Assembly: GCF_000014785.1 (NCBI RefSeq)
Contig: NC_008340.1
Span: 2,730,001-2,762,000 of the forward strand
DNA length: 32,000 bases
Direction: 5' to 3'
Source of the DNA: Alkalilimnicola ehrlichii MLHE-1
Lineage (GTDB): Bacteria; Pseudomonadota; Gammaproteobacteria; Nitrococcales; Halorhodospiraceae
Shown here: positions 9,761 to 31,510 of the stretch, one piece after another
How the letters are laid out: each line of letters begins with the position of its first letter
How positions within the stretch are numbered: the stretch's first letter is position 1
Program-made: the position numbers and the translations under genes
The notes under the pieces: generated by a model
Databases searched by the model: none
Told to the model about the DNA's origin: nothing
Seen by the model: the letters and a program-made list of their open reading frames with translations, nothing else

Positions 9761-10373
9761 GCTGCTGCGTCTCCTGCTGATTGTCCTGTTACTGGGCACG
9801 GCCACCGCCTCGCCGGCGGAGGAAGCCCCGCGCATCGCGGTGCTCGGCGACAGCCTGAGCGCCGCCTACGGCCTGGAGCGCGAGCGTGAGGGCTGGGTGA
9901 CGCTGCTGCAGGACCGACTGACAGCCGAGGGCCACCCGCATCAGGTTATCAATGCTGCCACCAGCGGCGATACGACCCGCCAGGCCCTCAACCGGCTCGC
10001 CCCCCTGCTGGAGGCGCACAGCCCCGAAGTGCTGGTGGTGCAACTGGGCGGCAACGACGGCCTGCGCGCCCTGCCCCCGGCGGAGACACGGCGCAACCTG
10101 TCGGCCATTATCGAGATGGGACAGTCGGCGGGGGCAGAGGTTCTGCTCGTGGGTATACGGCTGCCGCCCAATTACGGGCCGGCCTATAACCAACGCTTCG
10201 AGGCCCTGTTCCATGAACTGGCCGAGGACTACGACGTGCCGCTGGTCCCCTTCCTGCTGGAAGGTATCGCCACCGATGATGCCCTGATGCAGGACGACCG
10301 CATCCACCCCAACGCCAAGGCCCAGCCGAAGATGCTGGAGTTGGTGTGGCCGGAGCTGGTGCCGTTGCTCTGA
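9759..10373 (+). CDS. tesA: SGNH/GDSL arylesterase / acyl-CoA thioesterase I (TesA)
   Basis: ATG at 9759. MLLRLLLIVLLLGTATA is a signal peptide. Block I IAVLGDSLSAAYG, ATSGDTT, block III LGGNDGLR, and block V DRIHPN. It is highly collinear with my recollection of E. coli TesA and divergent from ybbA as in enterobacteria. Confidence 0.88.
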   Translation: MLLRLLLIVLLLGTATASPAEEAPRIAVLGDSLSAAYGLEREREGWVTLLQDRLTAEGHPHQVINAATSGDTTRQALNRLAPLLEAHSPEVLVVQLGGNDGLRALPPAETRRNLSAIIEMGQSAGAEVLLVGIRLPPNYGPAYNQRFEALFHELAEDYDVPLVPFLLEGIATDDALMQDDRIHPNAKAQPKMLELVWPELVPLL

Positions 10374-10384
10374 CCGGCCCGGGA

Positions 10385-10629
10385 TTGCCGTCACAGGCAC
10401 CCCGACATGGACTGCCGCGCCCCTGCGGGGGCGCGAATCAGCGAGGAACGGGGCACCCCCGTCATCGCGAGGGCCGAAGGCCCGTGGCGATCCAGAGGGG
10501 TAGACTGCCGCGTCGGCTTCGCCTCCTCGCAGTGACGGTGGGGGTGTCCCTCCCCGCCGTGACGGTGGGGCCCACCACCCCCGTCATCGCGAGGAGCGCA
10601 GCGACGCGGCGATCCAGGCGGCTGCAGAG
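10385..10629. repeat. REP/BIME-like palindromic repeat cluster 1
   Basis: Contains the units CCCCCGTCATCGCGAGGGCCGAAGGCCCGTGGCGATCCA, its convergent partner ...GACTGCCGCGTCGGCTTCGCCTCCTCGCAGTGACGGTGGGGG, and GTCATCGCGAGGAGCGCAGCGACGCGGCGATCCA. It lies between the convergent tesA and rdgC. Confidence 0.9.
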
Positions 10630-11628
10630 CTAGGCGCGAGGCGTGGCGCTACCGGTGATGCCGTCCTCGCTGGCCAGGGTGGCCTCTTCGTCCGGAGACG
10701 AGGGGCGGTCCTCTTCCGCCGGCCCCTGCCGTTCACCACCGAACAGTTCCATCAGCCGCGGGTAGAACCGCTGCAGCTCGAGGCTCATCAGGGAGAAGTC
10801 CACGTCCAGGCGCTCTTCCGGGGTCTCGGCCTCCTCCTCGGCGGCCTGCTCCTGCACCATGTCCAGAAACTTCAGGCGCTTGACCACCAGGCCGGCGTCC
10901 AGCACGCAGGAGAGGCGCTCGCCCCAGGTCAGGGCCAGGGTGCGCACCCGCTTGCCCGCCTGGATGTGGGCGCGCATCTCCTCGGCCACCAGGTCCTGGC
11001 GCTTGACCCGCACCTCGCAGCCCTCGGCGCGGGGGTCCTCCAGCACCGCCTCCTCGCCCAGCTCGACGTCACCGGGGATATCGTCCTCGGCCAGCCAGCG
11101 GGTCATCACCGCCTGCGGGCTTTCCTTCGTCTCCGGCAGGGCCACCGGCAGGGTGCCCAGGGCCTCGCGCAGGTGCTCGACGAAGTCCTCGGCGGCACGG
11201 GCGCTGGCGGTGTCCACCACCAGCCAGCCGTCGCGGGCGTCAATGTAGCCCCAGGTGCGGCGGTGGCGGCTGAAGGCACGGGGCAGCAGGTCGAGGATCA
11301 CCTCCTCCTTGAGCTGGTCCTTCTCGCGCCGGCGCACCTTACGGCTCTCCTTGTGCTCGATCTCGCCGACCTTCTCGTCCAGGGCGTCGCGGATGACCGA
11401 GGCGGGCAGGAGTTTGCTCTCCTCGTGCAGGCAGAGCAGGTGGAAATTGCCGACGGAGTGGGTCAACGGCGCATCCGGCCGGCCCATGGGCGGCACCCAC
11501 CCCACCCGCTGCATCTCGAACCGGGCGGCGGGCTCCCAGGCAAAGGCGGCCAGCGCCTCCTGCAGGCCCTCGGCCGTCTCGCGCAGGGGGGATTGGAGCT
11601 TGTAGAGGGTGAGGTTCTTGAACCACAT
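10630..11628 (-). CDS. rdgC: Recombination-associated protein RdgC
   Basis: The internal ATG at 11628 gives MWFKNLTLYKLQSPL..., the hallmark RdgC N-terminus. Also GWVPPMG, LLPRAFSRHRRT and VKRLKF blocks are collinear with my recollection of E. coli RdgC. The upstream part of the track ORF lies in repeat sequence. Confidence 0.9.
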   Translation of the reverse strand: MWFKNLTLYKLQSPLRETAEGLQEALAAFAWEPAARFEMQRVGWVPPMGRPDAPLTHSVGNFHLLCLHEESKLLPASVIRDALDEKVGEIEHKESRKVRRREKDQLKEEVILDLLPRAFSRHRRTWGYIDARDGWLVVDTASARAAEDFVEHLREALGTLPVALPETKESPQAVMTRWLAEDDIPGDVELGEEAVLEDPRAEGCEVRVKRQDLVAEEMRAHIQAGKRVRTLALTWGERLSCVLDAGLVVKRLKFLDMVQEQAAEEEAETPEERLDVDFSLMSLELQRFYPRLMELFGGERQGPAEEDRPSSPDEEATLASEDGITGSATPRA

Positions 11629-11654
11629 GGCGTGTGCATCCGCTGCGAAGGGAA

Positions 11655-12350
11655 AGCGGGACATTATGCGAGTCGCGCTGCGACGGGACAACCAGGCGTG
11701 GCAATCCAGGCCGGCGGGTGGATCGCCACGTCGCTGCGCTCCTCGCGATGACGGGGGTGGCGCCCCCACCGTCACTGCGAGCGCGGCCCCACCCCCACCG
11801 TCACTGCGAGGAGGCGAAGCCGACGCGGCAGTCTACCGCCCTGGATCGCCACGGGCCTGCGGCCCTCTTGATGAACATGGCCAGACGCTGCGGGCGCCCC
11901 CTACCCTCACTGCGAGCGCGGACCCACCCCCACCGTCACTGCGAGGAGGCGAAGCCGACGTGGCAGTCTACCGCCCTGGATCGCCGCGGGCCTTCGGCCC
12001 TCGCGATGACGGGTGGGGCGCCCCCTCGCGATGACGACCAAAAACCCGCGGCGCTCGCCATGGCAGCTCCGCTGTTCTTCCCTGATTCGGGCCCGCGCAG
12101 CGGGGAGGGGGGCTCGCGATGACCGGGAGTGCCCCGTTCCTCGTTGATTCGGGCCCGCGCAGCGGGAGGGGGGCTCGCGATGACCGGGAGTGCCCCGTTC
12201 CTCGTTGATTCGGGCCCGCGCAGCGGGAGGGGGGCTCGCGATGACGGGGTGGTGACCCCCACCGTCACTGCGAGCCCCGAAGGGGCGCGGCAGTCCAGGC
12301 CGGCGGGTGGATCGCCGCGTCGCTGCGCTCGCGATGACGGGGGTTGGAGG
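11655..12350. repeat. REP/BIME-like repeat cluster 2 (about 0.7 kb, includes a 61-62 bp tandem triplet at 12084-12245)
   Basis: Multiple copies of CCTCGCGATGAC / GTCACTGCGAGG units in both orientations, for example TGGATCGCCACGTCGCTGCGCTCCTCGCGATGACGGGGG. The unit GATTCGGGCCCGCGCAGCGGGAGGGGGGCTCGCGATGACCGGGAGTGCCCCGTTCCTCGTT occurs three times. Confidence 0.9.
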
Positions 12351-12358
12351 CTTGCATT

Positions 12359-12850
12359 TCAGTTCAACCACCAGATGGCGCCATTGAGCACTGCGGCGAA
12401 GGCCACCCACAGCGCGTAAGGCACGAACAGGATGGCGGCCCAGCGATCCACCGGTGCGAATTGCCGGATGCAGGCCAGCAACACCAGAAAGAGCAGACCG
12501 ATCCAGACCAGCGCCGCTCCCGGCGCCTGCAGGCCGAAGAAGATCACCGACCAGCACAGGTTCATCACCAGCTGCAGCCCCCAGAGCGCCAGCACGCCCC
12601 GCCCCTGCACCCAGCCCAGCACCCGCCACAGACGCCAGCCGGCGATGGCAATGGCCAGGTAGAGCGCCGTCCAGACCGGACCGAAGAGCCAGTCCGGGGG
12701 GTTGAACGGTGGCTTGGCCAGGTCGCGATACCAATCGTCCAGGCCGGTGGCGGTCACCGCCCCACCCAGGGAGGAGACCACCAGCACCAGGAACAGGAAG
12801 GCCAGCAGCATCGGGAAGTGGTGCCGGGGATTGGTCTGCATTGGGGTCAT
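12359..12850 (-). CDS. tspO: TspO/MBR family tryptophan-rich sensory protein
   Basis: The internal ATG at 12850 gives MTPMQTNPRHHFPMLLAFLFLVLVVSSLGG. Motifs WYRDLAKPPFNPPDWLFGPVWTALYLAIAIAGWRLW and FVPYALWVAFAAVLNGAIWWLN are diagnostic TspO motifs. There are 5 TM helices in about 163 aa. Confidence 0.9.
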   Translation of the reverse strand: MTPMQTNPRHHFPMLLAFLFLVLVVSSLGGAVTATGLDDWYRDLAKPPFNPPDWLFGPVWTALYLAIAIAGWRLWRVLGWVQGRGVLALWGLQLVMNLCWSVIFFGLQAPGAALVWIGLLFLVLLACIRQFAPVDRWAAILFVPYALWVAFAAVLNGAIWWLN

Positions 12851-12892
12851 AGTCCGTTGCTTCAGGATTGCCTCGAAAATACCAGACCGGGG

Positions 12893-13506
12893 CGTGGATC
12901 GCCGCGTCGCTGCGAAAGCCGACCCGTCCCCCACCGTCATTGCGAGGGCCGCAGGCCCCGTGGTGACCCAGGGCGGTAGACTGCCACGTCGGCTTCGCCT
13001 CCTCGCAGTGACGGTGGGGGCGACCTGCCGCTTCCGGCTCAGTCAAGTTCTTCAAGAGGGCCGAAGGCTTTCCCCCGTCGTCGCGAGGGCCGAAGGCCCG
13101 TGGCGATCCAGGGCGGTAGACTGCCACGTCGGCTTCGCCTCCTCGCAGTGACGGTGGGGGCGACCTGCCGCTTCCGGCTCAGTCAAGTTCTTCAAGAGGG
13201 CCGAAGGCTTTCCCCCGTCGTCGCGAGGGCCGAAGGCCCGTGGCGATCCAGGGCGGTAGACTGCCACGTCGCTTCGCTCCTCGCAGTAACGGTGGGGGCC
13301 ACTACCACCCCGTCATCGCGAGGAGCGCAGCGACGCGGCGATCCAGACGCCGGCATGGACTGCCACGCCCCTTCGGGGCTCGCAGTGACGGTGGGGATGG
13401 GACCGCGCTCGCAGTGACGGTGGGGATGGGACCGCGCTCGCAGTGACGGCGGGGGTGGCCCGCCCCTTGGCTGCACAGTCCAGTTCTTCAAGAGCCGCGC
13501 GATGAC
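12893..13506. repeat. REP/BIME-like repeat cluster 3 (includes a perfect 140-bp tandem duplication at 12971-13250 and a 31-bp tandem at about 13378-13445)
   Basis: 12971-13110 and 13111-13250 are identical by direct reading. A diverged partial third copy follows from 13251. The same unit types as the other clusters are present. It lies between the divergent tspO and fumA. Confidence 0.95.
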
Positions 13507-13556
13507 AGCCCAAGGCCCGCCAACACCATGTTGCCACGGACAAAACCCGCCGGCTG

Positions 13557-13565
13557 TGGTATAAC
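13557..13565 (+). promoter_or_regulatory. Candidate extended -10 element (TGgTATAAC) for the fumarase gene
   Basis: TGGTATAAC lies about 59 nt upstream of the ATG at 13624. No good -35 is present at 17 bp (TTGCCA lies 23 nt upstream). Confidence 0.3.
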
Positions 13566-13623
13566 CTGCCGCGCGAACACCCGACGCACAGACGACTATA
13601 AAGACACGCCCCGGAGGACGCCC

Positions 13624-16095: not shown

Positions 16096-16290
16096 ACCGT
16101 CACCGCGAGGTTTGGAGCGCCGCGGCGATCCACACACCGGCATGGACTGCCGCGCCCCCTGCGGGGGCTCGCAGTGACGTGGTGGGGGCATTCCACCGTC
16201 ATCGCGAGGGCCGGAGGCCCGTGGCGATCCAGGGCGGTGGACTGCCGCGTCGCTTCGCTCCTCGCAGTGACGGTGGGGGCGGACTGCCGG
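16096..16290. repeat. REP/BIME-like repeat cluster 4
   Basis: GTCACCGCGAGG...GGCGATCCACACACCGGCATGGACTGCCGCGCCCCCTGCGGGGGCTCGCAGTGAC and GTCATCGCGAGGGCCGGAGGCCCGTGGCGATCCAGGGCGGTGGACTGCCGCGTCGCTTCGCTCCTCGCAGTGACGGTGGGGG. It lies between convergent genes. Confidence 0.9.
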
Positions 16291-18914: not shown

Positions 18915-19451
18915 TCAGCGGATGTAGCGCTGCAGCACCTCCCGGAAGACGTCGGTCCCGGCCCGGCGCAGCCACTCAAAGGCCACCATCTCGCGGGTGA
19001 CCACCCAGCAGCCGGCCTGGCGCATGCGCGCCAGCGCGGTGTCGCGATCGTGCGGCCGGCGCGAGCCCACCGCCTCGGCCACCACGAACACCTCGCGCCC
19101 GGCCTCGCGCAGGCCCAGCGCCGTCTGCAGCACGCAGACGTGGGCCTCAGTGCCCACCAGCACCACCTGGGGCTCGTTCAGCTGGCTGAGCGCCTCGGGC
19201 TCGTCCGCCCAGCCGAAGCAGACCTTCTCGTGGATGTGCTCCGCCTCCAACCGCCCCCGCAACAGCGGAATGGTGGGGCCCAGGCCCTCGGGGTACTGCT
19301 CGGTGGCATGGACCGGGATCTTGAGGACCGCCGCCACGTCCATCAGCCAGGCCGTACAGTCCACCACCCGTTCGTGGTCGTGGATCTCGGGCACCAGCTG
19401 CTGTTGGATATCCACCACCAGTAACGACGATTCCTCTGCTTTCAGACGCAT
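18915..19451 (-). CDS. Isochorismatase-family (cysteine) hydrolase
   Basis: The internal ATG at 19451 has GGGAG upstream. [12 protein letters not shown] (catalytic Asp region), [19 protein letters not shown] (catalytic Cys), and a conserved Lys region HEKVCFG. 178 aa. Confidence 0.85.
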
Positions 19452-19511
19452 ACGGGCTCCCGAGGTTTCTGTCTCATAAATTGACGAACCAGTGTAACTA
19501 AACGCTGAGTA

Positions 19512-19890
19512 CACCGTCATCGCGAGCCCCCCTCCCCGCTGCGCGGGCCCGAATCAACGAGGAACGGGGCACCCCCGTCATTGCCAGGGCCGAAGGCTTT
19601 CCCCCCGTCATCGCGAGGGCCGAAGGCCCGTGGCGATCCAGGGCTGTAGACTGCCGCGTCGGCTTCGCCTCCTCGCAGTGACGGTGGGGGGGTAGCCCTT
19701 CCCGCCGTGACGGTGGGGGCGCCACCCCGTCATCGCGAGGAGCGCAGCGACGTGGCGATCCACACGCCGGCATGGACTGCCGCGCCCCTTCGGGGCTCGC
19801 AGTGACGGTGGGGCGGGTCGCCGCTTGCCGTGACGGTGGGGCGGGCCGCCGGCCGCCGTGACGGTGGGGCGGGTCGCCGTGACGGAGTGG
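19512..19890. repeat. REP/BIME-like repeat cluster 5
   Basis: GTCATCGCGAGCCCCCCTCCCCGCTGCGCGGGCCCGAATCAACGAGGAACGGGGCACCCCCGTCATTGCC..., the full composite GTCATCGCGAGGGCCGAAGGCCCGTGGCGATCCAGGGCTGTAGACTGCCGCGTCGGCTTCGCCTCCTCGCAGTGACGGTGGGGG, and then 3-4 short CCGTGACGGTGGGGCGGG reiterations. Confidence 0.9.
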
Positions 19891-19925
19891 GCTTGCCCCA
19901 GCGCTTTCGTCACAAAATAGTTGAC

Positions 19926-20426
19926 CTAGTTAGTGAGTATAATCCCCACGCCGAATCTGACACGCGGGGCGGTACGCTCGGCCTCCACTGCACGTGGCCA
20001 CAGGTGGAGATCATCGGGCACCACCCGGGGGTAGCGATAAGCGGCCTCACCAATGCGGCCGTCCACCACCTCGTCCACCTGTCCCTGCACGGTCAGGCTG
20101 CGACCGGGGGCGTAGTCGGCCGTCTCCAGGTACCCCGGGTGCTCGACCAGGAATCGCCCCCGGGGGGGTTGCCCGGTGCGGGGCCGCTGGCTGCGGTCCA
20201 GGGGATAGGCGAGCACCTCCAGGCGCGTGCGATCCTCCAGGTTCTCACTGGCGACAATGACCCCGCCCCAGACCACCGGCTGGTCCACGTGGTCGGGGGC
20301 ATCGGCAGCCAGCCGTTGGGGCGTCAGGTCAGGATCAACCTGAGCGGTGTCGTAGCGGGGGCCGGTGGCACAGGCGGCAAGCGCCAGGGCCAGCAACACC
20401 ACGAGTAGTGCTCGCGAAACGGTCAT
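19926..20426 (-). CDS. Slp-family outer-membrane lipoprotein (paralog 1)
   Basis: The ATG at 20426 gives MTVSRALLVVLLALALAAC (lipobox). VVWGGVIVASENLEDRTRLEVLAYPLD....P......RGRFLV.HPGYLE.ADYAPGR.LTV.G is the Slp family pattern. Confidence 0.8.
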   Translation of the reverse strand: MTVSRALLVVLLALALAACATGPRYDTAQVDPDLTPQRLAADAPDHVDQPVVWGGVIVASENLEDRTRLEVLAYPLDRSQRPRTGQPPRGRFLVEHPGYLETADYAPGRSLTVQGQVDEVVDGRIGEAAYRYPRVVPDDLHLWPRAVEAERTAPRVRFGVGIILTN

Positions 20427-20437
20427 GCGCACGGGCT

Positions 20438-20983
20438 TCACCAATAGGGTCCGTAGAAGGGATGGCGGTAGTAGCGCGGAAAGGGGCCGTACCAGGGGTC
20501 ATACCAGGGATCGTAGAAGGGGTCCCGGCGGTAGCTGGGGACCGGCTCGCGCTCCGGCCACAGGTGGTAGACCTCGACCCGCACCCACGGGAAGGTGTAG
20601 CGGTAATCCCCCACGGCCTGCTCCCGCAGCCCCTCAAAGGTACCCACCACCGTGATCGCACGGCCAGGCGCGTGGATGGCGGGGTCGAGAAAGCCCGGCA
20701 CACGGGCCAGGAAGCGGCCGGGGCTGTCATCGTCCCGCTCCGCCGGGCGCCCCCCGACCTGCAACCGGCGGGCGACCACCTCCAGCTCGGTGTGATCGGA
20801 GCGGTTGCGCACCTCGGCAATCACCCCACCCCAGCGCACCGTGCGCCCGGCATGGGCGTCCGGGTCGGCCCGCGCCTCGGCCAAGTCCGGGGCCTCTGGC
20901 GGGGCGCTGCGGATAGGTTCCGGGGCACCGGGCGCGCAGCCCGCCAGCAACAGCACCAACATCAGGGCAATCAGGACCTTCAT
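20438..20983 (-). CDS. Slp-family outer-membrane lipoprotein (paralog 2) with an aromatic/Pro-rich C-terminal tail
   Basis: The ATG at 20983 has GGAGG upstream. MKVLIALMLVLLLAGC (lipobox). VRWGGVIAEVRNRSDHTELEVVARRL...PGRFLARVPGFLDPAIHAPGRAITVVG. The tail is YRRDPFYDPWYDPWYGPFPRYYRHPFYGPYW. It lies 11 nt upstream of paralog 1. Confidence 0.8.
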   Translation of the reverse strand: MKVLIALMLVLLLAGCAPGAPEPIRSAPPEAPDLAEARADPDAHAGRTVRWGGVIAEVRNRSDHTELEVVARRLQVGGRPAERDDDSPGRFLARVPGFLDPAIHAPGRAITVVGTFEGLREQAVGDYRYTFPWVRVEVYHLWPEREPVPSYRRDPFYDPWYDPWYGPFPRYYRHPFYGPYW

Positions 20984-21027
20984 AGCGCACCTCCGTGGCC
21001 CTTGGACCGCCCCGGCACCACTGCGGT

Positions 21028-21660
21028 TCAGTCCATGGCCAGGCGGTCGATCACGGGCAGACACTCCGGGCCGTGGAAATGCAGGCCCAGGTCCTTGAGG
21101 CGACCGCTGGCCAGCCCGTAGATCCAACCATGCACCGACAGCGGCTGCCCCCGCTGCCAGGCCTGTTGTACCACCGTGCTGCGGCAGACATTGCGCACGC
21201 TCTGCTGGACGTTCAATTCGCACAGCAGATCCACCTGCCGCTCCTCGGGCAGATCGCGAAACTGCCCTTCATTCAGATGATAGACGTCCTCGATGTGGCG
21301 CAACCAGTTGTTGACGAAGCCCACGTACTGGTTGCTCAGCGCCGCCTTCACCCCGCCACAGCCGTAGTGGCCACAGACGATGATGTGCCGCACCTTGAGG
21401 ACATCCACGGCGTACTGCAGCACACTCAGGCAATTCACATCGGCGTGGGTGACCACATTGGCGATGTTCCGGTGGACGAACAGTTCGCCCGGCGGCATGT
21501 CGACGATCTCGCTGGCCGGCACCCGGCTGTCCGAGCAGCCAATCCAGAGGTACTCGGGCTTCTGTTCCCTGGCGAGCCGCTGGAAGAACGCCGGATCCTC
21601 CCGCTGCTTGCGCTCGGCCCAGGCCTGGTTGTTGGCCAATAGGTCTTTCAATTCGGGCAT
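21028..21660 (-). CDS. can: Beta-class carbonic anhydrase (Can-type)
   Basis: MPELKDLLANNQAWAE....EDPAFFQRLAREQKPEYLWIGCSDSRVPASEIV...PGELFVHRNIANVV.H.D.NCLSVLQYAVDVLKV.HIIVCGHYGCGGV is near-collinear with my recollection of E. coli Can. The Zn ligands C-D-R / H-x2-C are present. AGGAGG lies upstream of the ATG. Confidence 0.95.
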   Translation of the reverse strand: MPELKDLLANNQAWAERKQREDPAFFQRLAREQKPEYLWIGCSDSRVPASEIVDMPPGELFVHRNIANVVTHADVNCLSVLQYAVDVLKVRHIIVCGHYGCGGVKAALSNQYVGFVNNWLRHIEDVYHLNEGQFRDLPEERQVDLLCELNVQQSVRNVCRSTVVQQAWQRGQPLSVHGWIYGLASGRLKDLGLHFHGPECLPVIDRLAMD

Positions 21661-21760
21661 GGGGCCTCCTGGTCGGTGAATGGGACGGGACTATCGGCCA
21701 AGATACCGCAACCGGCCGGCTTGTGAAGCACCGGCCACCTCCCTCGGCTGGGCCGCCCCC

Positions 21761-25567: not shown

Positions 25568-25912
25568 GGCTGGGATTCTACCAGCCGATGGTGCCAAGGC
25601 GTCAGGGCGATGCCCCAGGCGGATGCGCACGCAAACCCCGTCGCGGCGACCCTGTGCCACAGCCCTTGGGGTTCACTCACGCACCAATATACGCCACCAA
25701 ACGCAGCGAACACCAAACCATTGCTGCCCCGTGCAACCCCTATATTTGGAATGCACACAATACGTCGCCACCCCCCGGAACAGGGCTGCGCAATACATTG
25801 ATTTTATGGAGGTGGCATTATCCTGGAGCAGAATGATCAGGAATAACCAGGTCCTACTAGCTCGGTCTTTTTTACCATTTCGTAACAGAAAAGACATCGT
25901 TTCTAACCACCC

Positions 25913-25928
25913 GTTACCGCACGGTAAC
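25913..25928. promoter_or_regulatory. Perfect palindrome GTTACCG-CA-CGGTAAC, a candidate upstream activator site
   Basis: 7+7 bp inverted repeat centred about 64 nt upstream of the -24 GG of the putative sigma54 promoter. A weaker TTAC-N6-GTAA sharing the half-site lies at 25872-25885. Confidence 0.3.
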
Positions 25929-25982
25929 AACGGCCCGACCGGGCGGTGCCCAAGCGACTACTTAGGCAGGGCTTTTTCTGTT

Positions 25983-25998
25983 TGGCATTGCATTTGCT
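25983..25998 (+). promoter_or_regulatory. Putative sigma54 (-24/-12) promoter TGGCAT-N5-TTGCT
   Basis: The sequence TGGCATtgcatTTGCTT has GG and GC separated exactly as in the consensus TGGCAC-N5-TTGCW. It lies about 46 nt upstream of the ATG at 26044, which has an AGGAG Shine-Dalgarno at 26031-26035. It sits in an unusually AT-rich 380-bp intergenic region. Confidence 0.6.
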
Positions 25999-26043
25999 TA
26001 AACCCCTCACCGAAAACCGCCGATTCGGCTAGGAGATCCGGTA

Positions 26044-27153
26044 ATGAGTAGCGATAGCACAGTGATTCCAAGAGATACCAATAGCGGCTGGGCCGCGGAA
26101 CGGGCTCGCCGCGGCGGCAGGCAGCGCCACTCCAAGTGGTGGCTGCTCGCCGTCATCGTCTCAGTGACGCTAAGCCTTCCGCTCAGCGGCTACCTGGCGC
26201 CGGCGGCCGCCAGCCAAGGCGCGGATCTGGCGGGGTTCTATCCTGAGAGCCAGATCAGCTACAGCTGGTCGTCGCTACGCGAAGGGCCCCTCACGATCTT
26301 CGCCCTACTGGCCATCGCCGGGTCGATACTCGTCTTTCTCGCGTTCCATCTGTTCGCCGGCAAGGTAAGGATTGACGGCGGCCGGTCCGGCACCACCGTG
26401 CCGAGGTGGAGCAGGTTCGAGCGCCTTCTGCACTGGCTGCTCGCCGGCTCGTTCATCGTGCTGGCGATCACCGGCCTATCGCTGTTCTTCGGTCGGTACG
26501 CGCTGATGCCCTTGCTGGGGGAGAGGGGTTTCTCCACCTACGCCTCGGGGGCGATCTGGATTCATGAAACCATCGGGCTGGTATTCGTGGCCCTCCTGGT
26601 CGCCGCCATCCTGCAGTGGATAAAGGGCAACCTTTTCCGGAGCTACGACTGGCAATGGTTCAAGCAGGGCGGCGGCTATATCGGCGATCGCAACACCCAC
26701 CCGCCGGCAGGGAAGGCGAACGGCGGCGAAAAGCTCTACTTCTGGCTCGGCATCGTTAGCATGGGGTCGGTCACAGCGATCACCGGTCTCGTACTCTACT
26801 TCACCACTTGGACCGGATCGGAGGGCTTGGTCGCCTGGTCGTTGATTTTCCATGTGCTCGGCGCCGCAGGATTCATCGCCCTGGCGATCGGCCATGTCTA
26901 CCTGGGTGCCATCGGCAATGAAGGGACGCTGGAGGGCATGGTGAGCGGCCGGGTGGACTGCAACTGGGCGAAACAGCACCACAACATCTGGTACGAAGAG
27001 ATCCTCCAGGACGGCGTGCAGCCGGAGCCCGCGAGCACGTCTGCGGCAGACGCCTCCGTGCCGAGCGCAAAGAGTTCGAAGTCCACGGCAACCGACGCCG
27101 CGTCATTGACGATTCGGACCGACGATGCGCCGGCGCGTCGCCCTTTGTCTTGA
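26044..27153 (+). CDS. FdnI-type (formate-dehydrogenase-gamma-like, PF01292-type) di-haem cytochrome b membrane subunit with an N-terminal extension
   Basis: The core aligns with my recollection of E. coli FdnI. RFERLLHWLLAGSFIVLAITGL, IWIHETIGLVF, GKANGGEKLYFWLGIVSMGSVTAITGLVLYF, and IFHVLGAAGFIALAIGHVYLGAIGNEGTLEGMVSGRVDCNWAKQHHNIWYEEI. All four haem-ligand His positions are present. There is also a predicted signal peptide (WWLLAVIVSVTLSLPLSGYLAPAAA/SQ), one additional TM helix, and a Ser/Ala/Thr-rich tail of about 50 aa. Confidence 0.85.
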   Translation: MSSDSTVIPRDTNSGWAAERARRGGRQRHSKWWLLAVIVSVTLSLPLSGYLAPAAASQGADLAGFYPESQISYSWSSLREGPLTIFALLAIAGSILVFLAFHLFAGKVRIDGGRSGTTVPRWSRFERLLHWLLAGSFIVLAITGLSLFFGRYALMPLLGERGFSTYASGAIWIHETIGLVFVALLVAAILQWIKGNLFRSYDWQWFKQGGGYIGDRNTHPPAGKANGGEKLYFWLGIVSMGSVTAITGLVLYFTTWTGSEGLVAWSLIFHVLGAAGFIALAIGHVYLGAIGNEGTLEGMVSGRVDCNWAKQHHNIWYEEILQDGVQPEPASTSAADASVPSAKSSKSTATDAASLTIRTDDAPARRPLS

Positions 27154-27203
27154 GCCGAGCGCCCCGGGAAGTCCCCTGTGGCCGTAGGCTATTGAATGAG
27201 TTT

Positions 27204-27412
27204 GTTGCGAGCCCCCTCCCCGCTGCGCGGGCCCGAATCAACGAGGAACGGGGTACCCCTGTCATCGCGAGGGCCGAAGGCCCGTGGCGATCCAGGGCGG
27301 TAGACTGCCGCGTCGGCTTCGCCTCCTCGCAGTGACGGTGGGGGTGGGGCCCCGCTCGCAGTGACGGTGGGGGCAACCTTCCGCTTCCGGCACAGTCCAG
27401 TTCTTCAAGAGG
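27204..27412. repeat. REP/BIME-like repeat cluster 6, inside the molybdoenzyme operon
   Basis: GCGAGCCCCCTCCCCGCTGCGCGGGCCCGAATCAACGAGGAACGGGGTACCCCTGTCATCGCGAGGGCCGAAGGCCCGTGGCGATCCAGGGCGGTAGACTGCCGCGTCGGCTTCGCCTCCTCGCAGTGACGGTGGGGG..., followed by the CCGCTTCCGGCACAGTCCAGTTCTTCAAGAGG module, which ends at the Shine-Dalgarno of the next gene. Confidence 0.9.
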
Positions 27413-27423
27413 AGAGAGCACGA

Positions 27424-29904
27424 ATGAATGTACTGCAGAATAAGCTCAACAGGAGACGATTCCTGCAGGCGTCCGGGGCCGCCGGTGCGGCGGGTGTGGC
27501 AGGCCTGAATGCGATCCCAGGTATATCGACGCTGGAGGCCAGCCCTGGGACCCGGGCGCGGGCCACGTCGGATACCGTCGTCACCAAGAGCGTCTGCCAG
27601 CAGTGCTCCACTCGCTGCGGGCTCGACGTCTATACGACCAACGGCCGGGTGCATGCCATCTACGGCAATCCAGACGCTCCGTTATCCAACGGCAAGCTCT
27701 GCCCCAAAGGCCACCTGGGCCCATACATCCTTTACGATGCCGACCGCTTCAAGGGGCCGATGAAGCGCACCAATCCCAAGAAGGGCCGCAACGAAGACCC
27801 GGGCTTCGTGCCGATCTCCTGGGACGAGGCCCTGGATACGGTCGCTGCCCGCTTGACGGCGCTGCGCGAGCGGAACGAGTCGCATCGCTTCGTTGTGGCG
27901 TACGGCCGCGGCTGGGGCCCCGCCGACGCCGGCCTGTTCGGCACCTGGGGCCGGTTGTACGGCTCCTCGAGCATCGGCATCGGCCATTCGAGCATCTGCG
28001 CCGATGGCTCCAAGAAGGTCAAGCGCGCCATGGACGGCAATGACTCATACAACTCCTACGACTACGAGAATTGCAATTGCCTGCTGATCTTCGGCGCCGG
28101 CTTCCTCGAGTCTTTCCGGCCTTACAATGCCAACATGCAGATGTGGGGCAGGATGCGCAGCAAGGGCACCCGCATCACCATGGTCGATGTGCGCAACTCT
28201 GTGACCGCCGCCGCTGCCGATCGCAAGCTGATCGTGTCTCCCGGCACTGACGGTGCGATCGCTTTGGCCATCGCCCACGTCATCCTCACCGAAGGCCTGT
28301 GGGACAGGCCCTTCGTTGGCGACTTCACCCGGTCCCGACTGCGATTCGAGACCGGCAAGCCGATCGATCCCGACACCTTCTCGGAAAACTGGGTGAAGGA
28401 CCTTCCGGCTTGGTGGAACACAACGCTGAAGGACGCCACTCCTGCCTGGGCCGAGGGCATCACCGGCGTGCCGGCGGAGAAGATCGTCGCCACGGCGAAG
28501 GAGTTCGGCAGCACCCGGCCGGCCATAGCGGTGTTCGAGCGCGGTCCCACGGCGCACACCAACGGCGCCTACAACGGCATGGCCATTCACGCCCTGAACG
28601 CGCTGGTCGGCTCAATGTTCGCCAAGGGTGGCCTGAGCTACCAGATGGGCTCGTCCGCCGGCAGCCTGCCGATCAACCCCGATGACTACATGGACGACTA
28701 CGCCCGTGAGATGGAGGGCAAATACCCGCGCATCGATATGGCGCGGACCGACGCCTGGCCGATGACCTCCAACATGATCCAGGACATCGCCAAGAACCAT
28801 CTGACCGGCTCACCGTACAAGATGGACACGATCATGTTCTATACGGTGGGTCCGATCTATTCCGGCCCCGACTGCACGGTGTGGGAAGAGGCACTCCAGG
28901 ACGTGTTCGTGATCGACACCTCGCCCTCGCCGCAGGAGAGTGCGCAGTTCGCCGACCTGATCCTGCCCGATCACACCTACCTGGAACGACTCGAAGTCGC
29001 CAACACTTACCCGTTCCAGGGCTATCCGATGTCGATGATCCGCGAGCCGGCGGTAAAACCGCTTTACGACACGATGCAGTTCGGCAACATCATGATCGAA
29101 CTTGGCAAGCGGATGCCCGGCCCGATGGCCGATTACTACCAGCAGGTGGGCAGTGTCGAGAACGTGGTGGCCGCATTCGCCGCGGGCTTTGAAAACGACC
29201 CCGGCGATAACGGCGTTAATGACCTGGCCAGCTTCAAAGAGAAGGGTGTCTGGTACAAGACCCCCTATTTGTGGCGCCAAATCGACGGCGAGTTCTACGA
29301 ATGGGACGGCCACCGCTACAGCATTCGGATGAGCGAGGACGATGTTAAGGCGAAACTGCTGAAGACCCCATCCGGGAAGTTCGAGTTCCAGCCCGCTTGG
29401 TTCACCAACGAGAAACACGCCGCGCATATCCAGAAACATCTCGGTATTCCGCGCGATATGATCGGCTTCCCCCATTACGTCGAACCGCAATACCAGGGCG
29501 GCGGCGACCTGCACCTGATCAGCCCGAAGCTACCGCTCTCCGCTGAGGGGCGCTCCGCCAACCTGCCGCATACCCACGCGGTATGGCAACCCACGCAGGG
29601 TGGCACCGACACGGTGTACATGGAGATTCACCCACAGGCCGCCGCCGCCCGCGGCATCAAGGACCGCGACCGGGTCCGGATAAGCTCCTCGGTGGGCGCC
29701 ATCGAGTGCTTCGCCAGCGTCTCTGGCGGGGTGCCGAAGGACACGGTAGTGCTGCCGCTGGCCCACGGCCACTGGGGCTCCGGCCGTTGGGCCCAGAACA
29801 AGGGGGTTTCCGGCAGTGTCAACGAAGTCATTCCCAACGTCGTCGAGCCGGTTTCCGGGCTCGTGGCCTTCAGCGCCGCCAAGGTCTTCGTTGAGAAGGT
29901 TTGA
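27424..29904 (+). CDS. Tat-exported molybdopterin (Mo/W-bisPGD) oxidoreductase catalytic subunit, Psr/Phs/Arr-like clade with Cys metal ligand. Substrate unknown.
   Basis: The ATG at 27424 follows AGGAGA. Twin-arginine signal NRRRFLQASGAAGAAGVAG. FS0 motif C-x2-C-x3-C-x27-C (CQQCSTRCGLDV...NGKLCPKGH). RTNPKKGRNEDPGFVPISWDEAL. Probable Mo-ligand region IGHSSICADGSKK. SPGTDGAIALAIAHVIL. 826 aa with no in-frame stop, so there is no selenocysteine. Confidence 0.9.
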   Translation: MNVLQNKLNRRRFLQASGAAGAAGVAGLNAIPGISTLEASPGTRARATSDTVVTKSVCQQCSTRCGLDVYTTNGRVHAIYGNPDAPLSNGKLCPKGHLGPYILYDADRFKGPMKRTNPKKGRNEDPGFVPISWDEALDTVAARLTALRERNESHRFVVAYGRGWGPADAGLFGTWGRLYGSSSIGIGHSSICADGSKKVKRAMDGNDSYNSYDYENCNCLLIFGAGFLESFRPYNANMQMWGRMRSKGTRITMVDVRNSVTAAAADRKLIVSPGTDGAIALAIAHVILTEGLWDRPFVGDFTRSRLRFETGKPIDPDTFSENWVKDLPAWWNTTLKDATPAWAEGITGVPAEKIVATAKEFGSTRPAIAVFERGPTAHTNGAYNGMAIHALNALVGSMFAKGGLSYQMGSSAGSLPINPDDYMDDYAREMEGKYPRIDMARTDAWPMTSNMIQDIAKNHLTGSPYKMDTIMFYTVGPIYSGPDCTVWEEALQDVFVIDTSPSPQESAQFADLILPDHTYLERLEVANTYPFQGYPMSMIREPAVKPLYDTMQFGNIMIELGKRMPGPMADYYQQVGSVENVVAAFAAGFENDPGDNGVNDLASFKEKGVWYKTPYLWRQIDGEFYEWDGHRYSIRMSEDDVKAKLLKTPSGKFEFQPAWFTNEKHAAHIQKHLGIPRDMIGFPHYVEPQYQGGGDLHLISPKLPLSAEGRSANLPHTHAVWQPTQGGTDTVYMEIHPQAAAARGIKDRDRVRISSSVGAIECFASVSGGVPKDTVVLPLAHGHWGSGRWAQNKGVSGSVNEVIPNVVEPVSGLVAFSAAKVFVEKV

Positions 29905-29928
29905 TCGAATTAGCAGGAGTAAATTGCG

Positions 29929-30675
29929 ATGACTAAGTGGGGCATGGTTATAGACTTGGAGAAATGCACCGGCTGCCAGGCCTGCACGATCGCCTGTGGC
30001 ATGGAGAACAACCTTCTGCCGGGCGAGCACTGGCAGGACGTTCTCTATTACTCGGAAGGCCAACTACCGGACCACGAATTGAAGTGGCTGCCGAGGCCCT
30101 GCATGCAATGTGAAGATGCCACCTGCGTCACGGTCTGCCCGACGGGGGCAACCTATAAGGATGCGGAGGCGGGCGGCGTGGTTTTCATCGACTGGGACCG
30201 CTGCATCGGCTGCAAATATTGCATCGTGGCCTGCCCCTATGGTGTGCGCTTCTCCACGGCCGAGCTCAAAACGCAGTCGCCGGACATGCGCGAGGTCTTT
30301 CCCAGCGGCGACGGCCACACCTGGAATCCGCCCTGGAGGGCGCCGGATTCCCGGGACAACCCCAAACGCGGGATCGGCATCCCGCCGAAGAATGTGGTGA
30401 GCAAGTGCACCTTTTGTCATCACCGCACCTCCACCGCCCCCGCCGACACGGCGGATCTCGATCCGAGCAACCCGGACCTGCGCGAGCATACGCCGGCCTG
30501 TGTGGTGACCTGCGCCCCCGGGGCCCGTTACTTTGGCGACCTCAACAACCCGAACAGCCAGGTGTCCAAGCTCATCGCAGAGCACAACGGGCAACCGGTG
30601 CTGAGTCACCTGAAGAACAAGCCGCAGGTGTATTACCTCGGCCGCAAGCGCGCTTCGCCGTCCCGGAGCAGTTGA
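29929..30675 (+). CDS. Four-cluster [4Fe-4S] ferredoxin electron-transfer subunit (PsrB/DmsB/FdnH-like), no TM anchor
   Basis: AGGAG Shine-Dalgarno. Four Cys groups: CTGCQACTIAC, CMQCEDATCVTVCP, CIGCKYCIVACP, and CTFCHHR...ACVVTCAP. There is an insertion of about 40 aa before group IV. The C-terminus (GRKRASPSRSS) is hydrophilic. Confidence 0.9.
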   Translation: MTKWGMVIDLEKCTGCQACTIACGMENNLLPGEHWQDVLYYSEGQLPDHELKWLPRPCMQCEDATCVTVCPTGATYKDAEAGGVVFIDWDRCIGCKYCIVACPYGVRFSTAELKTQSPDMREVFPSGDGHTWNPPWRAPDSRDNPKRGIGIPPKNVVSKCTFCHHRTSTAPADTADLDPSNPDLREHTPACVVTCAPGARYFGDLNNPNSQVSKLIAEHNGQPVLSHLKNKPQVYYLGRKRASPSRSS

Positions 30676-30676
30676 G

Positions 30677-31510
30677 GTGGGGGTGGATGATACGTCGGGC
30701 CTGTCGTTGCAGGGCGAACTGCTCGCCTGCCTTGGGCAGGCGATGCAACCTCCGCGCTCGGATGCGTTCTTCAACGCGTTGCGGGATGGGTTGGTGGACG
30801 ATATCGCCGACCTATGCGGGGCACTCGGGGCGGAGTCCGTAGCCGCCGATCTGCCACCGTTGCGTTGCGCGTTGGGCGAGGTGGAGGATCGGGAGTCGTT
30901 GCTATTGGCCTACAGCGTGTTGTTTCTCGCGCCCCCGCCCAAGGTGCGCCTCAACCTGGTCCGATTGATGGATGGGGCTTCCAGTGGTGCCGGTCTCGGC
31001 TACCTGGACGAAATGCTGGCCAGGCACCAGCTCAACCTCCGCTCCGAACACCGGGAACTGCCGGATCACCTCACGGTGGTTCTGGAGTTGGCCGCCTGCC
31101 TGATCAGCCGGGGTGAGCAAGGCAATGACCAGGCAGAACGAGACGCCAAGGCCTTGCTGCAACAAATGGTGGCACCGGCAGCCCGACACCTTGCCGAAAC
31201 GGCGGCCGACGTGGAGCAGGCACATGGCCTGCCCAAGGTCTACTCACGGCTGCTGGCGCTGATCGGCACGACCGGCCAGGACCCGGATGGCTGTCTGCTT
31301 CCCGGCACCCGTTCGGTTGCCGGGGAGGCCACCGGTGCGAGCAAATCCGCGCCGGACACCGGCCCAGCCATGGCCGCCTGCGCGCGCTGCGGGACACCTT
31401 TCGTGAGCCTGCGCGACCAGGCGGTGCTGATCGCGCATTTACAGGAGGCGGGAGCGCCGGCCGATCATCTGCACGTCTGTCCCGACTGCCGCACGGGGCC
31501 CGGCGGCTGA
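30677..31510 (+). CDS. TorD/DmsD-family redox-enzyme maturation chaperone with a C-terminal CxxC...CxxC zinc-ribbon-like extension
   Basis: A GTG start 1 nt after the upstream stop (another GTG lies at 30683). LLLAYSVLFLAPPP...YLDEMLARHQLNL....ELPDHLTVVLELAACL is the TorD-family core. The tail is CARCGTPFVSLRDQAVLIAHLQEAGAPADHLHVCPDCR. Confidence 0.75.
   Translation: MGVDDTSGLSLQGELLACLGQAMQPPRSDAFFNALRDGLVDDIADLCGALGAESVAADLPPLRCALGEVEDRESLLLAYSVLFLAPPPKVRLNLVRLMDGASSGAGLGYLDEMLARHQLNLRSEHRELPDHLTVVLELAACLISRGEQGNDQAERDAKALLQQMVAPAARHLAETAADVEQAHGLPKVYSRLLALIGTTGQDPDGCLLPGTRSVAGEATGASKSAPDTGPAMAACARCGTPFVSLRDQAVLIAHLQEAGAPADHLHVCPDCRTGPGG

Follow-up and report, generated by a model that had tools for sequence, protein, structure and literature searches.

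Intergenic repeat cluster attributable to CGTC-tagged REP elements between cytochrome b and ArxA/ArrA-like oxidoreductase genes of Alkalilimnicola ehrlichii MLHE-1

The 270-nt gap at 27154-27423 in a 32-kb stretch of DNA from Alkalilimnicola ehrlichii MLHE-1 (the whole analysed stretch is referred to as the window) separates the gene for an FdnI-type cytochrome b from the gene for an ArxA/ArrA-like molybdopterin oxidoreductase, the catalytic subunit. This gap is very probably a mosaic of CGTC-tagged repetitive extragenic palindromic (REP) elements, the regulatory consequences of which, if any, are by-products. The borders of the gap given in a preliminary description of this DNA are exact, with 27153 as the last base of the cytochrome b stop codon (TGA) and 27424 as the first base of the ATG that opens the catalytic subunit gene. 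The finding is ordinary for a repeat-rich genome: a described superfamily is encountered in a species for which it had not been reported, and its units are unusually built and heavily amplified in tandem. All repeat counts given for A. ehrlichii refer to the window only.

Repeat content of the gap

According to the preliminary description, the gap is almost entirely filled by palindromic repeats of other intergenic regions, and this was borne out for 27207-27411, corresponding to 205 of the 270 nt (76%), whose modules reappear at five further intergenic sites in the window with 91-96% identity over 43-134 nt. The segment 27215-27346 is 92% identical to 10415-10546 and 27369-27411 is 91% identical to 13016-13058; on the complementary strand, 27262-27374 matches 11762-11874 (96%), and 27207-27259 matches both 12126-12178 and 12187-12239 (92%). 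Module-by-module BLAST agrees with the repeat search on this composition, and unique sequence is confined to 27154-27206 and 27412-27423. The 12-mer head CGTCAYYGCGAG is present in 30 copies in the window, compared with 0.03 expected, all of which are located within six intergenic clusters. Furthermore, three independent short-read assemblies stop 38-39 nt upstream of the ATG, within the repeat, a break that is expected for a multi-copy sequence. With six clusters in the window and short-read assemblies breaking at them, the repeats constitute a host-wide palindromic family that is not specific to this operon, as had been proposed. The earlier distinction between high-GC repeats and lower-GC flanks is correct in direction but modest in size, the GC content being 0.707 in the repeat part, 0.681 in the whole gap, 0.68 in the window, 0.637 in the cytochrome b gene, and 0.630 in the catalytic subunit gene. 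The gap is divided as follows:

27154-27206, no strand: unique spacer part of 53 nt, GC 0.60, with no repeat match in the window
27207-27253, + strand: "A" linker module GCGAGCCCCCTCCCCGCTGCGCGGGCCCGAATCAACGAGGAACGGGG, with copies at 19516-19569, 12123-12245, and 10423-10453
27260-27294, + strand: Y-type CGTC-tagged REP unit, TGTC ATCGC GAG GGCC-GAA-GGCC CGTG GCGAT CCA
27295-27300: 6-nt spacer GGGCGG between the dimer tails
27301-27337, - strand: Z-type CGTC-tagged REP unit, CGTC ACTGC GAG GAGGC-GAA-GCCGA CGCG GCAGT CTA
27338-27366, - strand: 29-nt truncated head-only Z unit, lying in a tandem array (Tandem Repeats Finder, period 29, 2.1 copies, 27326-27385)
27367-27411, + strand: "D" linker module (…CCGCTTCCGGCACAGTCCAGTTCTTCAAGAG), whose last 3 nt overlap the ribosome-binding site
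27409-27415, + strand: Shine-Dalgarno sequence GAGGAGA of the catalytic subunit gene, read from the sequence and unpaired in the predicted folds

The Y unit and the inverted Z unit together form a head-to-head heterodimer at 27260-27337 with the tags outside, the tags being TGTC at 27260-27263 for Y, CGTC at 27334-27337 (- strand) for Z, and CGTC at 27363-27366 for the truncated unit. The canonical Y 35-mer, which carries the CGTC tag in place of the TGTC of the gap copy, is also found at 10460 and 19606, and one-base variants of it are found at 16197 and 12011 (- strand). Head-to-head Y/Z dimers are likewise present at 10460-10537, 13076-13153, 16197-16272, and 19606-19683. The copies of the "A" linker at 12123-12245 are three tandem 61-nt copies on the - strand; elsewhere this linker opens with the REP head CGTCATCGCGAG, which is degenerate at 27207. 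The "D" linker has a second copy with 91% identity at 13156-13198 besides that at 13016-13058, and a partial copy at 13476-13494 upstream of fumA. Within the clusters, Tandem Repeats Finder detected arrays with three kinds of period: 61 nt for the "A" linkers, 140 nt for the dimer together with the "D" linker, and 28-29 nt for the head-only units. The five sister clusters are as follows:

10406-10617: between the convergent GDSL lipase and rdgC genes
11695-12342: between TspO and rdgC, which have the same direction
12895-13506: between the divergent TspO and fumA genes, where the dimer and the "D" linker are duplicated in tandem (140 nt) and a 29-nt array is also present
16098-16280: between the convergent DUF2189 and HDOD genes
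19515-19883: between the isochorismatase and Slp genes; absent from strain CP184336

By gene context, three of the six clusters lie between same-direction genes, two between convergent genes, and one between divergent genes, and the nearest stop codon is 12-54 nt away.

Unit structure and stem covariation

The units share a common grammar, consisting of CGTC, the 5' side of a 5-bp stem (A-YY-GC), GAG, an apical C-GNA-G mini-hairpin, GNR, the 3' side of the stem (GC-RR-T), and CCA. When all of the heads on both strands of the window are listed, Y reads CGTC ATCGC GAG GGCC-GAA-GGCC CGTG GCGAT CCA and Z reads CGTC ACTGC GAG GAGGC-GAA-GCCGA CGCG GCAGT CTA (or CCA), and the unit variants differ in the apical stem. 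The stem begins with A-T and T-A pairs in Y and with A-T and C-G pairs in Z, and a TC/CT swap on the 5' side is accompanied by a compensating GA/AG swap on the 3' side; these compensatory swaps keep a perfect 5-bp stem in each unit and place mismatches in the long hairpin formed by Y and Z. For the covariation test, the 3' partner was set by the invariant flanks GCNNTC[CT] alone to avoid circularity. Exact complementarity at the two free stem positions was seen for 23 of the 28 units in the window and for 28 of 40 in other genomes, with three pair states, TC/GA, CT/AG, and TT/AA. Among 74 distinct units aligned with MAFFT, 96.5% of the cells are paired, and sliding the partner lowers this proportion to 69% or less. 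In the same alignment, 22 cells are changed on both sides, compared with 5.8 in shuffles (none of 500 shuffles was as high). All 74 aligned units have A-T as the first stem pair; for the second pair, 53 have T-A and 11 have C-G. The two variable stem positions thus covary across phyla, and the covarying structure is the small hairpin within each unit. The non-Watson-Crick stem cells are divided between T-G and C-A, and there is therefore no sign of selection on one RNA strand.

An imperfect hairpin of approximately 85 nt had also been described in the gap. Such a hairpin can indeed be folded at 27258-27341 (-43.3 kcal/mol), and it is not supported by covariation across the dimer. Its folding energy is only modestly better than that of dinucleotide shuffles (z -2.2), as is that of the slightly longer segment 27250-27346 (-50 kcal/mol, z -1.6), and the fold of the entire gap has no advantage over such shuffles (z -0.06). 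The Y unit alone (27258-27298) has a predicted energy of -22.7 kcal/mol with z -3.3 on the sense strand, and the Y/Z dimer folds with approximately -40 kcal/mol on either strand. The 85-nt dimer hairpin was considered as the selected structure and rejected, because the Y/Z swaps preserve the unit stems but create dimer mismatches.

The apical C-GNA-G motif is present in 110 of 186 distinct units, with GAA in 74, GCA in 19, GTA in 10, and GGA in 7. The DNA mini-hairpin d(GCGAAGC) and GNA triloops, the reported subject of work by Hirao et al. in 1994 and Yoshizawa et al. in 1997, are said to be exceptionally stable. The C-GNA-G apical loops may thus hint at a single-stranded DNA stage in the life of these units.

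Probable assignment to the CGTC superfamily

CGTC-tagged REPs were described as elements whose one end carries an unpaired CGTC, in some cases TGTC or CCTC, whose stems nearly always have complementary A/T residues at their first two positions, and whose 3-nt tail approximates CCA (Di Nocera, De Gregorio and Rocco 2013, PMC3733652). They are mainly head-to-head dimers with the tags outside, frequently heterodimers, are known from several phyla, and are mostly located between same-direction or convergent genes, near 3' ends (PMC3733652). Neisseria dRS3, the inverted repeat of the NIME mosaics, and Rickettsia RPE-4 and RPE-6 were placed in the same superfamily (PMC3733652). The units of A. ehrlichii agree with this description in their unpaired CGTC or TGTC tag, in their ends (CCA in Y units, CTA or CCA in Z units), and in their arrangement, which is mostly that of head-to-head dimers and often of heterodimers. 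Their stems begin with A-T, and the second pair is T-A in Y units but C-G in Z units. They are also multi-copy and intergenic, and are mostly found between same-direction or convergent genes near 3' ends. Similarly to the NIMEs of Neisseria, they alternate with other repeated linker segments. A. ehrlichii is mentioned neither in the text nor in the supplementary species lists of the 2013 survey (PMC3733652), and no relevant paper was found in literature searches on a connection of Alkalilimnicola with REPs or with REP-associated tyrosine transposases (RAYTs), or on the repeat sequence.

Several points weigh against the reading of the gap as a CGTC REP mosaic with by-product effects. The architecture of the units is unlike that of the published families CGTC-1 to CGTC-4, which have stems of 8-9 bp and loops of 4-5 nt (PMC3733652), in that the basal stem of the A. 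ehrlichii units is 5 bp long and leads through a GAG/GNR internal loop to an apical stem of 2-5 bp with a 3-nt GNA loop; loops of other lengths do occur in CGTC-1 of Bradyrhizobium (PMC3733652). Clusters are rare in the published families (PMC3733652), unlike the A. ehrlichii units, nearly all of which are clustered and tandemly amplified. The ATTGCGAG-type unit is assigned here at the level of the superfamily, by the published description. In addition, no mobilising enzyme is encoded in the 32-kb window, and, with regard to a by-product effect, neither the Z unit nor the linkers surpass shuffled sequence in sense-strand folding. Finally, no empty-site allele of the gap was found that would distinguish insertion from long residence.

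Distribution in other organisms

A genome collection in which the A. ehrlichii genome is not included among the hits was scanned with the 18-mer CTCGCAGTGACGGTGGGG, which has 12 copies in the window. Approximately half of the 33 hits sit in the CGTC-A-YY-GC-GAG unit grammar, and these come from Bradyrhizobium, Inquilinus, Rubellimicrobium, an Acetobacteraceae metagenome-assembled genome (MAG), a betaproteobacterium, and Anaerolineae, as well as from Flavobacterium, Flavipsychrobacter, and a Bacteroidia MAG. The repeat family is accordingly present in Alpha-, Beta-, and Gammaproteobacteria, Bacteroidota, and Chloroflexota. A recurrent neighbour gene, such as one for a small nuclease or a transposase, was not found beside the units in 14 loci of other taxa.

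A degenerate unit pattern detected more than 120 IMG/VR contigs, with the archetype CGTCATTGCGAGCGAAGCGAAGCAATCCA; the GC content of the 14 contigs examined ranges from 0.34 to 0.72, and TCCA is the commonest ending of the units (87 of 150). The examined contigs look like gene-transfer-agent (GTA) or phage head clusters, in which the terminase and portal genes enclose the dimer. Head-to-head dimers, located in the terminase/portal gap or beside a GTA-gp10 homolog, are found at the following positions:

L087, 5184-5257
L076, 3189-3265
L094, 3562-3646

These dimers are a further case of CGTC REPs lying within co-directional gene clusters. In Neisseria, dRS3 marks the integration sites of filamentous phages. 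A comparable role of the IMG/VR dimers as filamentous-phage integration sites was considered and rejected, because the contigs are GTA or phage head clusters in which the dimer is merely intergenic.

The exact 35-nt Y unit was also found in 15 metagenome contigs (L165-L179) with unrelated flanks, GC contents of 0.56-0.69, and varied dimer partners. Three of them (L167, L170, and L177) have the Y-Z arrangement of A. ehrlichii, and their names suggest soda-lake samples. The dimer junction specific to A. ehrlichii (a 24-mer) was not found in the metagenome scan.

Strain comparison and repeat dynamics

Strain CP184336 is 95-100% identical to MLHE-1 from approximately 22 kb of the window onward and 99-100% identical across the operon. 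Its gap equals that of MLHE-1 base for base, apart from two extra 29-mers (+58 nt), and in the near-identical operon stretch (~22-32 kb) of the approximately 12 kb aligned, these two 29-mers are the only indel of more than a few bases. Beside the isochorismatase gene, CP184336 has no repeat cluster where MLHE-1 has 370 nt, and the neighbourhood of this site is otherwise rearranged as well. A SulP/STAS transporter gene is located between the isochorismatase and Slp genes of CP184336 (L003, 470-4200, compared with 19430-21700 of the window) and is not present in MLHE-1, and the Slp and carbonic anhydrase genes adjoining the site are 60-76% identical between the strains, with surroundings of 95-100% identity.

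The clusters change faster than their surroundings, mainly through slippage or duplication. The earlier suggestion that the repeats may be actively spreading thus holds insofar as they are still dynamic, with a 58-nt copy-number difference at the gap and one other cluster missing in CP184336. The comparison with orthologous operons that had been called for was possible within the species, with CP184336, and no operon of cytochrome b and catalytic subunit is available elsewhere for the same purpose. The spacer is not conserved in distant taxa, since the repeat head is absent from all of the homologous arx and formate dehydrogenase loci compared.

As a separate observation on the 29-mer array at 27339-27372, which is longer in CP184336 (L003, 9860-9960), its sense strand contains runs of 4-5 G, GGTGGGGGTGGGG…GGTGGGGG. 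Additional 29-mer copies add further G-runs, and a G-quadruplex could conceivably form in the RNA or in the non-template DNA.

Possible spread of the units

An identical or nearly identical 35-nt unit in unrelated bacteria with GC contents from ~34% to 72%, together with the copy-number and presence/absence differences between strains, would point to an enzyme that propagates the units. It is possible, albeit doubtful, that they form a distinct multi-phylum subfamily of CGTC REPs that is still propagated by a widespread enzyme acting on single-stranded DNA hairpins. Candidates for this enzyme would be an orphan transposase and a housekeeping factor of replication or repair. In the proposed mechanism, the REP units would spread as single-stranded DNA hairpins via a putative enzyme, and the cluster would have been accommodated in a non-coding spacer that begins to carry repeats 54 nt past the stop codon and tolerates them with the next ribosome-binding site intact. 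The cluster would then be primarily selfish or neutral repeat DNA in a tolerant spacer. The conservation of 35-nt units across phyla without a known mobilising enzyme is the one point that sets this otherwise ordinary finding apart, and a gammaproteobacterium with unusually dense, tandemly amplified CGTC REPs now joins the superfamily. If such an enzyme does exist, the dense clusters of A. ehrlichii would make this species a good choice for the search.

Comparison with other repeat families and alternative identities

The preliminary description had likened the repeats to the REPs and bacterial interspersed mosaic elements (BIMEs) of Escherichia coli, and this identity was not upheld, because the tag is CGTC rather than GTAG and the units form head-to-head heterodimers with linkers. 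The resemblance to the E. coli elements at malE-malF and to REP325 in yjdMN lies in the presence of two hairpin variants in alternating orientation with linkers and in the location between co-directional cistrons, where protection of the upstream mRNA and partial termination would be expected upon transcription. In contrast, the sequences are unrelated, and E. coli REPs are tied to a RAYT transposase, none of which is known for the A. ehrlichii repeats. REPINs of Pseudomonas and its relatives share with them an inverted REP pair foldable as a long hairpin, multiple copies, and presence/absence variation within the species. However, REPINs are lineage-specific and inherited with a single-copy RAYT gene, whereas the 35-nt unit of A. 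ehrlichii is identical in unrelated organisms and its covarying stem lies within the unit and not across the dimer. Miniature inverted-repeat transposable elements (MITEs), such as the Correia elements of Neisseria and the enterobacterial ERIC/IRU, are likewise imperfect palindromes of ~80-130 nt between genes that are transcribable as long hairpins. Unlike MITEs, the A. ehrlichii element consists of 35-nt tagged hairpin units, grows by tandem duplication, and has no recognisable transposase-type terminal inverted repeats or target-site duplication. No direct repeat flanks 27207-27411, and the cluster borders differ between sites.

The repeats are very unlikely to belong to the GTAG-type REPs or REPINs that a RAYT mobilises in E. 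coli and Pseudomonas. Formally, the Z units of the main dimer do read GTAG-ACTGC… on the opposite strand (27300-27308), i.e., GTAG followed by a stem, and the dimer organisation resembles that of REPINs. CGTC is nevertheless the tag that is conserved in all units and phyla, whereas GTAG is restricted to one Z subtype and absent from Y, and the other Z subtypes carry TGG or GTGG at this position. No Y1-transposase gene is present in the window, and the published survey found no transposase gene with CGTC repeats on its flanks (PMC3733652). RAYT-linked REPs are, moreover, lineage-specific, which is at odds with a Y unit that is identical across unrelated contigs. Z units with an opposite-strand GTAG are also found at ~10.50, 11.83, 11.97, 12.97, 13.11, 13.25, and 19.65 kb, which may be a coincidence. 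It is still less credible, to the point of being negligible, that the gap harbours an operon-specific structured RNA (riboswitch or leader) or a small protein. Its high GC content offers many possible helices, and open reading frames (ORFs) of 61-182 aa overlap it, but these ORFs are the usual spurious frames of a genome with 68% GC. Rfam 15 gave no match at the gathering score in the whole window, and at a permissive threshold on the sister clusters (10300-13600) only microRNA-like hits at chance level were obtained. The sequence of the gap is a multi-copy repeat in unrelated contexts and orientations, and this copy distribution effectively refutes an RNA or protein reading. An in-frame GTG at 27361 gives an 847-aa catalytic subunit, which is present in one protein database, but this start just extends the protein into the repeat ahead of the canonical ribosome-binding site. 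The extension is translated repeat, and the credible start is that of the 826-aa protein at 27424, with a ribosome-binding site and a twin-arginine translocation (TAT) N-terminus. In annotations, the gap is best given as a REP mosaic and neither as a regulatory RNA nor as an N-terminal extension of the catalytic subunit.

Genes around the gap

The genes flanking and following the gap, and a terminator-like hairpin at the end of the first, are as follows:

26044-27153, + strand: FdnI-type cytochrome b, 369 aa, ABI57765/WP_011630158 (Pfam Ni_hydr_CYTB, 4.6e-29; exact match)
27123-27140, + strand: weak terminator-like GC hairpin CGATGCGCCGGCGCGTCG followed by CCCTTTGTCTT (consensus scan, 2 sites compared with 1.7 in shuffles, not significant)
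27424-29904, + strand: ArxA/ArrA-like molybdopterin oxidoreductase with TAT signal, 826 aa, ABI57766 (Pfam/NCBIfam; exact match)
29929-30675, + strand: four-cluster ferredoxin
30677-31510, + strand: TorD/NarJ-like chaperone

The three proteins around the gap match the MLHE-1 entries ABI57765-ABI57767 exactly. The cytochrome b scores 157 bits with TIGR01583 (formate dehydrogenase gamma), above the model cutoff; its nearest homologs are 40-49% identical and are always encoded by the last gene of formate dehydrogenase operons. The best NCBIfam model for the catalytic subunit is ArrA, with a score far under the cutoff, and its nearest homologs outside the species are ArxA proteins with 60-63% identity. 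The loci of these homologs are canonical arx loci (arxB2-A-B-C-D, some with arxXSR upstream) without cytochrome b and with a gap of 0-120 nt ahead of arxA. No NrfD/ArxC-type anchor is encoded in the operon at 26044-31510, and no orthologous operon of cytochrome b and catalytic subunit was found outside the species in the collections searched. The arrangement at 26044-31510 is therefore a chimera of a formate dehydrogenase-type cytochrome b and an ArxA-like module. This operon is probably the second arrA-like locus of MLHE-1 (Mlg_2426); a literature search on Mlg_2426 returned no relevant paper.

The "single operon" of the preliminary description is an inference, and the cytochrome b and the catalytic subunit differ in evolutionary affinity, judging from their homologs. 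The two genes may plausibly be co-transcribed, given that no other membrane anchor gene accompanies those of the catalytic subunit, the iron-sulfur protein, and the chaperone. The GC content at third codon positions is 0.78-0.84 in the operon genes and 0.79-0.94 in the neighbouring genes of the window, and because these ranges overlap, a foreign origin of the operon is at most weakly indicated. With this overlap, and with no allele lacking the repeats, the earlier proposal that the repeats colonised the module after its arrival receives weak support.

Possible effects on expression

An effect of the cluster on the expression of the two flanking genes is plausible by analogy with E. coli. There, REP325 between tandem genes doubles as a partly Rho-dependent terminator and a stabiliser of the upstream mRNA in a strongly context-dependent manner, and expression is biased upstream in REP-containing tandem gene pairs. 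The REP case of E. coli malEFG, reportedly described by Newbury et al. in 1987, is said to point the same way. If the cytochrome b and catalytic subunit genes are co-transcribed, the Y hairpin and the dimer would block 3'-to-5' exonucleases and possibly cause a partial stop of transcription. Such an exonuclease block or partial stop would bias expression to the upstream cytochrome b as a by-product. The cluster may in this way skew the expression of cytochrome relative to catalytic subunit of an ArxA-like enzyme in an arsenic-cycling bacterium, and the copy-number difference between the strains constitutes a natural test of this skew.

The preliminary description went further and proposed that the stoichiometry of cytochrome b and catalytic subunit is set by hairpins in the RNA through 3'-end protection, attenuation, or both, which would imply that the cluster is maintained for this purpose. 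This is possible but rather improbable, and a merely measurable bias toward upstream expression would be somewhat more likely. The location of the cluster between co-directional genes, 54 nt after a stop codon, the stable sense-strand hairpin of the Y unit (-22.7 kcal/mol, z -3.3), and the partial termination, upstream stabilisation, and upstream bias known from E. coli tandem pairs are in favour of maintenance for the subunit ratio, as is the general location of CGTC REPs between same-direction or convergent genes near 3' ends (PMC3733652). However, elsewhere in the window the same modules also lie between convergent or divergent genes and in antisense orientation, so that nothing is specific to this operon, and the folding of the whole gap is indistinguishable from that of shuffles (z -0.06). 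The hairpins have no U-tract, no intrinsic terminator (GC hairpin plus U-tract) is present within 27154-27423, and G exceeds C on the sense strand (97 compared with 87), which would make for poor Rho loading. The difference in 29-mer copy number between two near-identical strains argues against tight selection on the structure, and the division of the non-Watson-Crick cells between T-G and C-A, noted above, likewise gives no sign of selection on one RNA strand. Two separate transcription units, in which the cytochrome b unit ends at the hairpin at 27123-27140 and the catalytic operon starts at a promoter in the gap, with the repeats simply lying in a normal region between operons, are unlikely. 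The hairpin has a T-rich tail and overlaps the cytochrome b stop codon, the homologs of the two genes belong to formate dehydrogenase operons and to arx operons without cytochrome b, respectively, and 270 nt is a long gap for an operon. In contrast, the terminator-like call is at chance level with a weak T-run, and no sigma-70-like promoter is found in 25600-27600. The "D" linker is also located just upstream of fumA, but neither copy has a recognisable promoter. Functional coupling of the catalytic, iron-sulfur, and chaperone genes with cytochrome b would also be expected, given that no other membrane anchor gene serves them. A sigma-54 promoter in the unique 53 nt or in the "D" linker was checked by eye and rejected on account of wrong spacing.

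Other features of the window

A 93-nt tRNA-Glu(CTC), which may be a false positive, was called by ARAGORN at 1635-1727 on the - strand; it has an odd length and overlaps long ORFs on both strands.

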